A stretch of DNA of 64,000 bases from a virus: IMG/VR virus record IMGVR_UViG_3300043496_000175, positions 1 through 64,000 of that record; one strand, given 5' to 3'. Made by a program: the position numbers and the translations under genes. This document shows positions 43,245 through 56,574 of the stretch, piece after piece. The notes below the pieces were generated by a model. The model saw only the letters and a program-made list of their open reading frames with translations. It was not told the DNA's origin and did no database searches. Each line of letters starts with the position of its first letter. Within the stretch, counting starts at the first letter, position 1.

Positions 43245-43264
43245 TGAGATGAGATGGAGATCAG

Positions 43265-43726
43265 ATGGCGAGTAAGACGTTCCGCGTCGCAGTGCAGACG
43301 GAGAGAATCAGCTTCACGCTGGAGTACCTGCAGGGCGGCAAGCCCGCCAGCAAGGTGTTCAACTGCCGCCCCACCGTTCCGGTCGGGCTGATCCTGCAGT
43401 TCGCGGACATCGGCAGCATGAAGGACGAAGACGAATCGTCCGGTGCTGTGGCGATCGACATGATCAAGCAGCTCTACCAGGCCGCGATCGTGCCGGAAGA
43501 GTTCCCGGCGTTCGAGGCACTTCTCGATGATCCCGACGCGGGCATCACCGTAGACATGTACTCCGAGATCGCTGGGTGGTTGGCCGGTGAGTACACGGCC
43601 CGCCCTACTGGAGAGAACTCGGAAAGTTCGCGACCAGCTTCCTCGTCTGGGACCGACTCGACGGTTGGTGCCTCTCCCGTGGTATTGAGCTACTCGAAGT
43701 CGGTGCCAGTAGAGGCTTCGGCCTGA
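43265..43726 (+). CDS. tail assembly chaperone (gpG-like)
   Basis: Directly upstream of tape measure; WL..EY.ARPT followed by Ser-rich tail. Confidence 0.75.
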   Translation: MASKTFRVAVQTERISFTLEYLQGGKPASKVFNCRPTVPVGLILQFADIGSMKDEDESSGAVAIDMIKQLYQAAIVPEEFPAFEALLDDPDAGITVDMYSEIAGWLAGEYTARPTGENSESSRPASSSGTDSTVGASPVVLSYSKSVPVEASA

Positions 43727-43893
43727 TCGAATACTGGATGGAAGACACCGGTGCGATCAGCAAGGAAGAGCACGAAGCCAGGGAGAACTTCCGTACTTCT
43801 CTGGTGAGATTGGGTAAGCAGGTCACCGACCAGCAAGAGGGCAGGGGTCCAGACCTTTCGATGGTCCCACCGCATTTGGTGGGGAAGCGATAG
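43603..43893 (+). CDS. tail assembly chaperone frameshift extension (gpGT-like, -1 frame)
   Basis: -1 frame reads PYWRELGKF..WDRLDGWCLSRGIELL..YW..; open to TAG at 43891. Confidence 0.6.
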   Translation, partial: PYWRELGKFATSFLVWDRLDGWCLSRGIELLEVGASRGFGLIEYWMEDTGAISKEEHEARENFRTSLVRLGKQVTDQQEGRGPDLSMVPPHLVGKR

Positions 43894-53168: not shown

Positions 53169-53762
53169 ATGGGCCGCATACGACGCTTCATTTTCGGCCA
53201 GCCGGGGTGGTCCGACTACCTCTTCCAGATACCTCCTAAGCAACCGGACGCCAGAGCCGTTTACCTCGCCGGGACTGGTTTGATCACCGCGATCCGGGGT
53301 GCGCAGACGGTGTGGGGCCAACCACCGCAAGCCTGGCTGTTTGTAGAACTTGGCTCGGTGTTCGTGCTGTTCTGGGGATGGGTCTGGATTGCGGTAGGTG
53401 TCATCACTCTTTTGGTGGCTGCCACGGGGCACCGACACCCCGACTGGGATCGACTCAGTGCATTCAGCATGCTGATGCTCTGGTTCGTCTGGGGTCTGAT
53501 CTACCTAGTTAGCGCATGGTTGGCTCCAACGAGTGACCGAAGGCTCATTGACCTGTATGCCGGTCTCGGGTTAATTTTCACGGGAATCATTCTGTCAGCC
53601 GGTGTTATCCAGGGCCTACGGAAGACTCACGAGATCTACCTGCGAGAGCAGTCCGAGAAGGCCCGGCGGGATCTTGAAGTCACTCTCATCGAGGTGACCA
53701 AGGAGAACGAGAGGCTCCGCTTGGACTGTGAGCACCTACGCAGGCCGGAGGTCGAGCTGTGA
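53169..53762 (+). CDS. four-TM membrane protein (lysis region)
   Basis: Four hydrophobic helices plus coiled-coil tail; GAAGGAG RBS. Confidence 0.7.
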   Translation: MGRIRRFIFGQPGWSDYLFQIPPKQPDARAVYLAGTGLITAIRGAQTVWGQPPQAWLFVELGSVFVLFWGWVWIAVGVITLLVAATGHRHPDWDRLSAFSMLMLWFVWGLIYLVSAWLAPTSDRRLIDLYAGLGLIFTGIILSAGVIQGLRKTHEIYLREQSEKARRDLEVTLIEVTKENERLRLDCEHLRRPEVEL

Positions 53763-54232
53763 CCTTTGAACAGGCAATCGCGATCATCGTCGTCGCCATC
53801 ATCACGGCGGCGGGGAGTATCTACGCAGCACGGAAGTCAGCGAAAAACGACCAGAACCGGATCAACCAGGCCATGGTCACGGTGCTCGGGGTGGAGCGCG
53901 AAAAGATCGCGGCGGAACTGGATCGGGCAACCATCCGGACCAACGCTACGAATGAGCAGTTGGAAAAGGTGGGGACCGACTTGAGAGCTGCGAAAGAAGA
54001 GTTGACCGAAGTCAGGATCACTCACAGGGAAGCCATAGCCGAGAAGGACGCCACGATCAGGGAACGTGACGCTACGATCCGGGAGGTACAGGCTCGTACC
54101 ATCGAGCTGGAAGCCATGTTGAACGCCTGCCGAACCGAGCTGGGACAGGTGCGTGCAGAGCTGCAGAACGCCTTGACGTTGATCCACCAGCAGGCGCAGC
54201 AGCTTCAAACGCAAAGGAACGGCCAGTCCTAG
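53759..54232 (+). CDS. single-TM coiled-coil protein (holin-associated)
   Basis: N-terminal TM then heptads; upstream of lysin. Confidence 0.7.
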   Translation: MTFEQAIAIIVVAIITAAGSIYAARKSAKNDQNRINQAMVTVLGVEREKIAAELDRATIRTNATNEQLEKVGTDLRAAKEELTEVRITHREAIAEKDATIRERDATIREVQARTIELEAMLNACRTELGQVRAELQNALTLIHQQAQQLQTQRNGQS

Positions 54233-54247: not shown

Positions 54248-55378
54248 GTGTCTCTCGACCAGTGGCCAGCAGCGTTCAAAGCTGCTGGCCTTTCCGTACA
54301 GCTACACAACGGGTTCCCCAACACATCCAAACCGCAGGGCTCACTGAACAGCCCGCTGATGTCCTTGTATGTCCACCATGACGCCACCCCGGCTGGGCCG
54401 ACGCCCGGCGCGTTGAACTGGATCATTGACTCCTACAATTCCGGTTCTCCCAGCGCCCAGCTTTGGCTGGACACCTCGGGTGTCTGGCACTTCTGCGGAG
54501 CTGGAGTGGCCTCCCACGCCGGGGTGGTCCGGGGTGGGCTCACCAACCGGAACTCGGTGGGTGTGGAGACGGATCACACCGTCAACGAGTTGTACCCAGC
54601 ACCCATGATGTCCAGCCTACTCAAAGGCTGTGCAGTGGCTTGCAAGGTGGAGAAGCGGCAGGCGGATTTCATCACCTTCCACAAGATCGAAGCGTCTCCG
54701 CGAGGCCGCAAGCAGGACCCATGGCTCACCCAGGCCAGCAACACCCAAGCCAACTGGGACAAGGAGCTGGCCGATTTCCGCGCCAAGGTTCAGATCCTGA
54801 TCAGTACCGGCGGCAACATAGACATTCCCACTGGCCCCAACATCCCATCTGAAGGAGATTGGTTCGACATGGCAACGGAAGCGGATCTGGAACGGGTCGT
54901 TGACAAAAAGCTCCAGCAGTATGCTGCGCACTACGGTCGTGAGTCAGTCAAGGCACTGATCAATCAGCAGACGAACGCTACTGGACAGCCGGATTACTAC
55001 CCCTACGGTGACACCGCGAAGACGCAGATCGCTGACACAGTGTGGAACAAGGGCATTAAGTCTTCCGTGGACGGACAGACCTATTCGGCGGCCGGATACC
55101 TGGCGTCGAGTGATTGGCGCATCCAGGATATTCAGTCGCGGATGAGCACATTGTCCCGGGCTGAGTTGAATGAGGTTGCTCGGTGGATCGTTGCAGAACT
55201 TGATGGCGATGCTTCCACCACTACCACTGCGACGTACACCGTCAAGTCCGGCGACACCTTCACCAGCATCGCCACAGCTCACGGCATCAGCGTGGACCAG
55301 CTCAAGGAGCTGAATCCGAAGGTCACCGACATCAACAACATCAACCCTGGGGATGTTTTGAACGTCCCAAAAGCGTAG
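54248..55378 (+). CDS. endolysin: N-acetylmuramoyl-L-alanine amidase plus LysM
   Basis: VHHDA, SHAG, N..SVGVE, FHK..RKQDP; C-terminal YTVKSGDT..IA..G..L..LNP..I.PG..LNVP. Confidence 0.9.
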   Translation: MSLDQWPAAFKAAGLSVQLHNGFPNTSKPQGSLNSPLMSLYVHHDATPAGPTPGALNWIIDSYNSGSPSAQLWLDTSGVWHFCGAGVASHAGVVRGGLTNRNSVGVETDHTVNELYPAPMMSSLLKGCAVACKVEKRQADFITFHKIEASPRGRKQDPWLTQASNTQANWDKELADFRAKVQILISTGGNIDIPTGPNIPSEGDWFDMATEADLERVVDKKLQQYAAHYGRESVKALINQQTNATGQPDYYPYGDTAKTQIADTVWNKGIKSSVDGQTYSAAGYLASSDWRIQDIQSRMSTLSRAELNEVARWIVAELDGDASTTTTATYTVKSGDTFTSIATAHGISVDQLKELNPKVTDINNINPGDVLNVPKA

Positions 55379-55896
55379 AGCCCGCGATCGACAAGCGGGA
55401 CAAGTACCGGGCGCAAGTTGATCAAGCAGTCGAGGACTTCGGAAACCTGCGTCCCACCAAGTGGGGACCTTTGCCCAGGGCCCGCGCCAAGCGGATCTCC
55501 TACCGCACGATCTTCGCAGAGACTGACTGGCGGAACCTGGCGAACGCATCGGTGCCGGAGAGTTTGAACTACCCCAACGATGGGCAAGGCAAGGACAAGG
55601 ACTCAGTCGGGCTCTACCAGCAGCGTGCTCGCTGGTGGGGGACCACGATGGGTTCGATGGATCCGTACATCGCCACCACGCGGTTCCTGGACCGGATGCT
55701 GCAGAACGCGCCGAGCTGGTTCACCACCGATGAAGCGGAGGTAGCTCAGATGGTGCAGGGCTCGCAGTACGACGGCGTTACGATTGATCCCGTCACCCGA
55801 AAGCCTTACCCTTTTGCTCAGAATTACCGCGATCGGGATGCTCAGACGGCGGCGATGGAGCGGGACCTGAGCTACTACGGAAACGGGGGCAAGTAG
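55372..55896 (+). CDS. lysozyme-like domain, probably a -1 frameshift extension of the endolysin
   Basis: AE..NLAN..VPESL.YP.DG.G.D.DSVGLYQQR..WG..MDP..F..AQ.VQGS; frame opens through CCCAAAA at end of lysin. Confidence 0.75.
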   Translation, partial: SVEPAIDKRDKYRAQVDQAVEDFGNLRPTKWGPLPRARAKRISYRTIFAETDWRNLANASVPESLNYPNDGQGKDKDSVGLYQQRARWWGTTMGSMDPYIATTRFLDRMLQNAPSWFTTDEAEVAQMVQGSQYDGVTIDPVTRKPYPFAQNYRDRDAQTAAMERDLSYYGNGGK

Positions 55897-56337
55897 GTGC
55901 CCGAGGAAGTACACATCCACGTTCACGTCCACACCGGTGGCACGAGCGAAGAACACACCCAGATCCTGGACGCCGTCCAGGAACTAACAGAAGGAGTCGC
56001 CAGCATGGCAGCAGATCTCTCCGGCCTCACCAATGAGGTATCGGAACAGGAAACCACCGTCGCCGGTGCGGTTGCACTGATCAACGGTTTCGGCGCTCAG
56101 CTCGATGAGCTGCTCCAGCAGGCGGAAGAGGGCCGCGTTGACGTGGCCGCCATCTCCGCTCTCAAGGACCGGCTCGACGCCTCCACCAACTCCCTGGCCG
56201 AGGCCGTTACGGCCAACACCCCGGAGTCCCCGGAGGAGCCGCCGGTTGAGGAACCGCCGGTGGAAGAGCCGCCCGTCGAGGAGCCTCCGGTTGACGAAGA
56301 GCCCGCGCCGCCGGTGGAGGGCAACGTCAACCCGTGA
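55897..56337 (+). CDS. coiled-coil protein with (EEPPV)n tail
   Basis: HIHVHVH N-terminus; tandem 15-nt EEPPV repeats about 56231-56300. Confidence 0.7.
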   Translation: MPEEVHIHVHVHTGGTSEEHTQILDAVQELTEGVASMAADLSGLTNEVSEQETTVAGAVALINGFGAQLDELLQQAEEGRVDVAAISALKDRLDASTNSLAEAVTANTPESPEEPPVEEPPVEEPPVEEPPVDEEPAPPVEGNVNP

Positions 56338-56574
56338 TCACAGCTTGGTGACTTCGGACGGCCGGTAGTAGTAGACCCGGCCACCAATCTCCACGCCGAC
56401 TTCGCCCATATTGTGATTGTCAACAACCCCCGTGCGGCCATTGAAGTGGCCGCCGGGGGTTGTCCCTATTTTGACCCTGGCACCCACCGGCAGCCCGGTG
56501 ATCCGTTCGTACGTCCGAACGTTCTCTTCCTTGGTGATCTTCGCCTTGGCGGCGGATTCCTTCGTTCCTACCAT
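56338..56574 (-). CDS. SH3/KOW-like small protein
   Basis: VGARVKI..GRTGVV..VGV..Y.PSEV; GAAGGA RBS. Confidence 0.6.
   Translation of the reverse strand: MVGTKESAAKAKITKEENVRTYERITGLPVGARVKIGTTPGGHFNGRTGVVDNHNMGEVGVEIGGRVYYYRPSEVTKL

Follow-up and report, generated by a model that had tools for sequence, protein, structure and literature searches.

A candidate −1 frameshift that would join a GH184-type muramidase to a phage amidase-LysM endolysin

In Lactobacillus phage A2, ribosomes that slip by −1 close to the 3′ end of the late genes for the major head and major tail proteins make C-terminally extended forms, so that each gene gives two products; the slip site, from work by Garcia et al. 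in 2004, is said to be C CCA AAA. A review of recoding confirms −1 frameshifting in this phage (PMC5009743). Here, we investigated a 64,000-nucleotide stretch of viral DNA (the window; positions 1 to 64,000 of IMG/VR record IMGVR_UViG_3300043496_000175), in which C CCA AAA lies at the 3′ end of an endolysin gene and a muramidase reading frame continues in the −1 frame. As in A2, a slip here would extend a gene product at its C terminus. However, A2 extends structural proteins with an Ig-like domain in a low-GC Firmicute host, whereas in the window a whole second enzyme would be placed on a lysis enzyme, apparently in a high-GC actinobacterium (the source virus record has a G+C content of 63%).

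The locus also resembles Escherichia coli dnaX and lambda gpG/gpGT in combining an X XXY YYZ heptamer, a short spacer, a downstream hairpin and a close zero-frame stop. The dnaX shift, on the other hand, gives the shorter product, gpGT is a chaperone fusion, and wall hydrolases figure in neither. For the stimulators of dnaX, namely a Shine-Dalgarno sequence upstream and a strong hairpin, no counterpart is evident or conserved in the window.

Endolysins have been closely studied as modular enzymes and as antibacterials, and their isoforms arise from internal starts or from separate genes. In Ms6 LysA, Lys170 and CD27L/CTP1L, a second in-frame start yields a shorter C-terminal product. These are likewise single lysis loci whose long and short forms share a module, but in the window it is recoding at the 3′ end of the gene that would add a domain. 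The muramidase itself resembles the fungal KsGH184 and TtGH184 (PDB 8b2e and 8b2h; PMC10394673) in its fold, its ES/ET and GLYQQR motifs and its catalytic Glu. The fungal enzymes are secreted and carry an N-terminal SH3-like wall-binding domain, whereas the gene described here belongs to a lysis cassette and would borrow a LysM domain via fusion.

Our literature search found no established case of a frameshifted lysin; the 1994 lactococcal work cited by the PRFect paper lay outside that search. The recoding review mentions no endolysin (PMC5009743), the PRFect paper names lysins among genes "known to contain a frameshift" with reference to the 1994 paper, and a Streptomyces phage announcement reports predicted frameshifts near endolysins. 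As a mechanism, −1 frameshifting is textbook; appending a GH184 muramidase behind the LysM domain of an amidase lysin would be new.

The lysin and the muramidase reading frame

The 3′ end of the lysin gene reads GTC CCA AAA GCG TAG, and its C CCA AAA is phased as X XXY YYZ when read with the lysin, exactly as an initial annotation of the window had proposed. The −1 frame runs without a stop from 55204 to 55896 (its stop codon is at 55894 to 55896), and between 55204 and 55470 it contains no ATG, GTG or TTG. The earlier statement that this frame has no canonical start before a TTG at 55471 therefore stands, as do the lengths given for the two products (376 aa for the lysin and 549 aa for the fusion) and the junction peptide, ..LNVPK/SVEPAIDK. 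The features of the junction, all on the plus strand, are as follows.

54248 to 55378, + strand: endolysin gene, 376 aa, with a GTG start and an AGGAGG Shine-Dalgarno sequence
55366 to 55372, + strand: C CCA AAA slippery heptamer, phased as X XXY YYZ with the lysin; candidate site of the −1 shift
55372 to 55896, + strand: post-shift −1 reading with the predicted GH184-type muramidase domain, 174 codons plus stop
55376 to 55378, + strand: lysin stop codon TAG, one codon past the heptamer
55380 to 55384 and 55408 to 55412, + strand: hairpin GCCCG/CGGGC, 7 nt past the heptamer
55381 to 55423, + strand: pseudoknot of the initial annotation (stem 1, 55381 to 55385 with 55395 to 55399; stem 2, 55386 to 55392 with 55417 to 55423)
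55387 to 55389, + strand: ATC, the sole near-cognate start that the −1 frame offers after the lysin stop and before helix 1
55393 to 55446, + strand: helix 1 of the muramidase (residues 10 to 27 of the −1 reading), motif DKRDxYRxxVDxAV
55471 to 55473, + strand: TTG, the first canonical start in the −1 frame (residue 36), which would yield 141 aa
55519 to 55521, + strand: GAG, predicted catalytic Glu (residue 52 of the −1 reading), aligned to Glu41 of KsGH184

The −1 open reading frame (ORF), for which we found 31 close homologues, had no match in Pfam or NCBIfam. We built a profile (A1) from it and 25 homologues and searched PDB with hmmsearch. The profile matched the fungal GH184 structures 8b2e (E = 5.7e-20) and 8b2h (E = 7.1e-18), and the sequence of the −1 ORF on its own matched a GH184 structure with an E value of 1.3e-13. 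An AlphaFold2 model of the ORF product had a predicted local distance difference test score (pLDDT) of 93.8, and Foldseek placed this model with 8b2e and 8b2h at a probability of 1.0 and template modeling (TM) scores of 0.84 to 0.86. Glu52 of the −1 reading aligns with Glu41 of KsGH184 and is invariant across the 26 A1 sequences. In KsGH184, Glu41 is essential and located at the end of helix 2 (PMC10394673); in our model, Glu52 is at the end of the helix formed by residues 35 to 53. By profile, fold and catalytic Glu, the −1 ORF is predicted to encode a GH184-type muramidase, which sharpens the "lysozyme-like" label given to it at first.

In the model, helix 1 (residues 10 to 27) has a pLDDT of ∼97 and residues 1 to 9 are unstructured. 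The helix 1 motif, DKRDxYRxxVDxAV, is conserved among the 25 A1 homologues. As the catalytic Glu ends helix 2 in KsGH184 and the helix of residues 35 to 53 here, helix 1 belongs to the core of the fold.

GH184-like domains are widespread. By tblastn, 508 actinophage records contain them at 36 to 47% identity; most of these records are from phages of Gordonia and Mycobacterium, and among the matches listed, these actinophage domains all sit within tape measure proteins. The GH184-like profile matches 2,695 cluster representatives of many architectures, often at the C terminus of longer proteins. Since distant relatives carry the domain C-terminally in longer proteins, the GH184 fold is compatible with an N-terminal fusion.

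For the lysin, the terms "amidase" and "LysM" both held up, the former by fold and the latter by family. The protein consists of a domain of Amidase_2/peptidoglycan recognition protein (PGRP) fold (∼1 to 190), a poorly modeled helical linker (191 to 325) and a C-terminal LysM domain (330 to 374; PF01476, E = 2e-14, 53.7 bits versus a gathering cutoff of 20.9), and it also matches PHROG endolysin families. Sequence family searches gave no name for the N-terminal domain. In a structure model built with 12 homologues, residues 1 to 190 were well predicted, and Foldseek matched this domain to AmpD, PlyL, XlyA, LysC and PGRPs at a probability of 1.0, with E values down to 9e-6. PF01510 is present in one lysin homologue, and the lysin alignment (A5) has invariant His residues at H43, H44, H90, H110 and H145. 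The predicted fold thus confirms an Amidase_2-type domain, and the label amidase-LysM stands. The public call for the lysin (P0034) has 339 aa, or 90% of the ORF. This call seems too short, because GTG 54248 is preceded by AGGAGG (duplex energy, −10.3 kcal/mol) and homologues align from residue 1.

Where translation of the muramidase can begin

The public gene call for the muramidase in this contig (P0002) starts at TTG 55471 and has 141 aa. The closest homologue, P0006 (71% identical), is called short, as are P0011, P0017 and P0020; in another homologue, P0015, the N terminus reads MAGPKSV. If TTG 55471 were the true start, the conserved codons upstream would be a recent relic. The TTG is the first canonical start in the frame and has a weak Shine-Dalgarno-like GGGGA 5 nt upstream (−6.5 kcal/mol). 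However, a product starting at residue 36 would be without helix 1, its first residue falling in the loop that leads into the helix with the catalytic Glu, and the 35 upstream codons are conserved at the protein level. Over 30 codons of this upstream region, loci that have no start codon at the junction differ by 26 synonymous and 15 nonsynonymous changes in the −1 frame, whereas the same codons read in the two other frames give ratios of 7:38 and 4:41; the differences are thus mainly synonymous in the −1 frame only. The analysis as a whole supports a genuine muramidase gene downstream, held under purifying selection. Furthermore, in one of the related loci compared below (L003), the first start after the lysin stop is 37 codons past the motif, within helix 2, so a rule of starting at the next NTG cannot be general. 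We therefore consider a start at TTG 55471 improbable.

Because helix 1 is a core element that stand-alone homologues of 170 to 177 aa also conserve, ribosomes must come into the −1 frame before TTG 55471, and hence before every canonical start available to the muramidase in the window. The public 141-aa call is almost certainly too short. The possible entry points have little to attract ribosomes on their own. For neighboring lysis genes, the Shine-Dalgarno duplex energies range from −8.8 to −10.7 kcal/mol; the near-cognate ATC at 55387 has none (−2.1 kcal/mol), and no Shine-Dalgarno sequence was found at a useful distance from the junction starts of relatives. Because the entry points are without Shine-Dalgarno sequences, the muramidase depends on ribosomes coming off the lysin gene, whether these slip or reinitiate.

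A candidate slip site in nine loci

We compared the junction in nine distinct loci: the window, six IMG/VR contigs and two metagenome contigs. Metagenomes hold at least these two further loci, besides L011, a duplicate of L002 that was left out. Further scans of viral contigs with single proteins and with a DNA pattern returned the same six contigs only, a genome scan for homologues gave only two distant matches, and blastn against isolated phages gave none. At each of the nine loci, the lysin ends with a LysM domain and the muramidase comes next, in the −1 frame. In the window, L001, L006 and L013, CCCAAAA stands in phase at the same place, 7 to 10 nt before the lysin stop, which comes 0 or 1 codon past the heptamer. 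The check named in the initial annotation, conservation in related lysins, thus came out in favor of the heptamer in four loci, while many relatives have a junction start of their own and the pseudoknot (see below) is not conserved.

The four muramidases from CCCAAAA loci are 53 to 64% identical in pairwise comparisons, and 49 to 61% of their identical residues use the same codon, which is about the expectation from codon bias. In the genes of these loci, CCA makes up 4 to 17% of Pro codons and AAA 6 to 33% of Lys codons, and the frequencies multiplied over L001, L006 and L013 come to ∼1e-6. Rare codons kept amid saturated synonymous sites suggest that CCCAAAA has been retained beyond the needs of the protein. 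We considered dual coding as the cause of this retention and rejected it, as the CCCAAAA loci have no canonical −1-frame start upstream of the heptamer. The 64 ORFs examined in the window contain 0.0023 in-phase X XXY YYZ heptamers per codon; of these, CCCAAAA alone lies within 5 codons of a gene end.

The remaining loci have other letters at the junction. L003, L004 and L012 have the heptamer G GGC CCY at the same position. As independent proof, these loci count only in part: L003 and L012 have a −1-frame ATG 27 codons upstream. In L002 and L005, the lysin ends with ACC CCT and the stop, and there is a GTG or TTG at the junction. All nine lysins have a C directly before their last Pro codon, a context with a background rate of 0.32 in the window. 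A one-base backward slip could thus let Pro tRNA pair anew with CCC in every locus.

Only the window and L004 are without any canonical start that would yield a full-length muramidase. L004 has no near-cognate start between the lysin stop and the motif; its CTG is 27 codons upstream of the motif and its GTG 8 codons beyond it. In several of the loci, a −1-frame NTG is formed by the TGG codon of a conserved LysM Trp and the preceding base, 27 codons 5′ of DKRD. This is ATG in L003 and L012 (its first base supplied by the rare codons GCA and CAA), GTG in L002 and CTG in L004 and L005, and it is absent in the window. It could serve as an alternative, deeply overlapping muramidase start in that subgroup.

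For the window, we favor a −1 frameshift that makes a 549-aa amidase-LysM-muramidase, with a confidence that is somewhat better than even. Most ribosomes would stop at TAG 55376 and release the 376-aa amidase-LysM protein. A fraction would move one base backward at C CCA AAA, where the tRNAs for Pro and Lys would pair again, now with CCC and AAA; these ribosomes would go on to read SVEPAIDK... to 55893, producing the 549-aa protein. The hairpin 7 to 8 nt downstream and the nearby stop codon may aid the slip. The related site C_CCA_AAG has been reported to be highly shift prone in E. coli (PMC5009743). A single slip mechanism would account for the missing start in the window and for the loss of both L001 GTG codons there (they read GAG and GCG), as well as for the rare-codon heptamer in four saturated lineages and for the position of the heptamer in L006. 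We infer the slip, its efficiency and any role of RNA structure; the "fixed ratio" between lysin isoforms named in the initial annotation is pure conjecture.

Alternatively, ribosomes that terminate at TAG 55376 may reinitiate on ATC 55387 and make a separate muramidase of 169 aa, with the AAAA tract and the hairpin aiding reinitiation. Coupling of this kind fits the stand-alone majority of the family: the stand-alone homologues start a few codons from the lysin stop, with overlaps such as GTGA, TTGA and TAGTG, and the absence of a Shine-Dalgarno sequence at the junction in every locus is typical of coupled genes. The ATC is in frame directly before helix 1, and in L002 and L005 the position of the hairpin at the start codon fits unmasking by an upstream ribosome. 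However, ATC is a very weak initiator in E. coli. In L006, the only GTG is at the motif, 24 nt past the AAAA tract, which is too distant for the tract to act as an enhancer, and L004 shows the coding signature between the lysin stop and the motif yet has no near-cognate start there. If independent initiation were needed, the loss of the L001 GTG pair in the window would be unexpected. Coupling would also require a different and mostly poor start in each locus and a separate cause for the AAAA tract. Taken together, we regard reinitiation as possible but unlikely for the window.

The junction could also be an artifact or a relic, in that a one-base assembly error hides a fusion or a start, or that the muramidase is no longer expressed. 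The contig is indeed a metagenome assembly. Eight other independent assemblies, however, have the same −1 relation between the genes, and three of them have the same heptamer with a stop within two codons. The ORF is intact across 176 codons, and every family-invariant residue is present, including the catalytic Glu. Error and decay together seem highly improbable.

RNA structure, counterevidence and the wider locus

Several observations weigh against a frameshift in the window, and the first concern RNA structure. The 70 nt past the heptamer have an ordinary RNAfold energy (z = +0.63 versus shuffles), and RNAalifold found no shared consensus structure among the four CCCAAAA loci (−5.9 kcal/mol). 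The structure checks thus did not bear out the H-type pseudoknot of the initial annotation. Its four arms do exist and can pair as proposed, stem 2 by way of one G-U pair, and stem 1 (55381 to 55385 with 55395 to 55399) is part of the minimum-energy fold; the pseudoknot as a whole is not conserved and leaves 0 nt between stem 1 and stem 2 (loop L1).

Other observations on the same side concern the family, the heptamer and the material. About 17 of the 25 A1 homologues are called as stand-alone proteins of 170 to 181 aa that begin with M, V or L 3 to 8 residues before DKRD, suggesting that a free muramidase is the common state of the family and that fusion is not obligatory there. No in-frame amidase-LysM-GH184 protein was found: the search for longer proteins returned one NlpC/P60 protein, the lysin homologues have 256 to 380 aa, and ten multidomain GH184 representatives have neither an amidase nor a LysM domain. 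L001 and L013 keep the heptamer yet have a GTG that overlaps the lysin stop or lies right beside it, which leaves room for another role of the heptamer, e.g., as an A-rich tract favoring coupled reinitiation. A near-cognate ATA or ATC directly follows AAAA in L006, L001 and L013, and the window has ATC 55387. In E. coli, AAA as the second slippery codon has been reported to be less shift prone than AAG (PMC5009743). Finally, all nine loci compared are metagenomic DNA.

A two-stem score, a crude measure made for this analysis with 200 dinucleotide shuffles as the null, favors a first stem of 55380 to 55384 with 55408 to 55412 combined with stem 2 (55386 to 55392 with 55417 to 55423), a combination that beats 200 of 200 shuffles. 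L013 has an analogous two-stem pair (2 of 200 shuffles), and L001 and L006 have none. The 55380/55408 helix corresponds, in the window, to a hairpin present in seven of the nine loci, 5 to 8 nt past the slip position. Its arms are formed by the Gly/Thr-Pro-Val codons and the Tyr-Arg-Ala/Gly codons (alignment A2, columns 33 to 42 and 59 to 68; 55378 to 55413 in the window). The hairpin is strong in L002 to L005 and L012 (consensus energy, −21 kcal/mol; z = −0.6 to −4.0), with significant z values (−1.8 to −4.0) only in L003, L004 and L012. In L005, two pairs are compensatory, through substitutions that change the amino acid on both sides. The junction start codon of L002 and L005 lies within this hairpin or next to it. 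The junction hairpin would suit a frameshift stimulator as well as it would suit coupling, with the start of L002 and L005 masked, and is neutral between the two.

The lysin and the muramidase are part of a rightward lysis block located 3′ of the tape measure and tail genes. Two genes of this block precede the lysin.

53169 to 53762, + strand: gene for a multipass membrane protein, the first of the lysis block
53759 to 54232, + strand: gene for a membrane-anchored coiled-coil protein, in the lysis block

The next gene (55897 to 56337, 146 aa) has a GTG start one base past the muramidase stop. Its product has a coiled-coil-like N-terminal half and a PVEEP-repeat tail, with no family match, and it is the final gene ahead of a terminator-like hairpin at 56504 to 56521.

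The window also contains a presumed tail assembly chaperone pair at 43253 to 43893, 5′ of the gene for the 1,444-aa tape measure protein. The pair consists of an ORF ending at 43726 and a −1-frame ORF that is open from 43591 to 43893. The overlap (43591 to 43726) contains no in-phase X XXY YYZ heptamer; GGAAAG at 43621 to 43626 is in the wrong phase. A G/GT frameshift here may use a noncanonical site, or the frame assignment may be wrong.

A −1 slip on C CCN at the end of the LysM-lysin gene might occur throughout the family, including relatives with a junction start, although we hold this extension only tentatively and think it rather doubtful. If true, two genes would provide three lysis enzymes: the amidase-LysM protein, a free GH184 muramidase and an amidase-LysM-muramidase. 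The muramidase would then borrow a wall-binding module, with the hairpin 5 to 8 nt downstream setting the proportion.

If the frameshift in the window is real, it would be a new way for a phage to set the proportion of a one-enzyme lysin to a two-enzyme lysin. It would also explain muramidase genes that have no start of their own and are shortened by annotation pipelines, as in the 141-aa call here, which is without a core helix. Moreover, it would place GH184, so far characterized only in fungi, among the lysis enzymes of phages.

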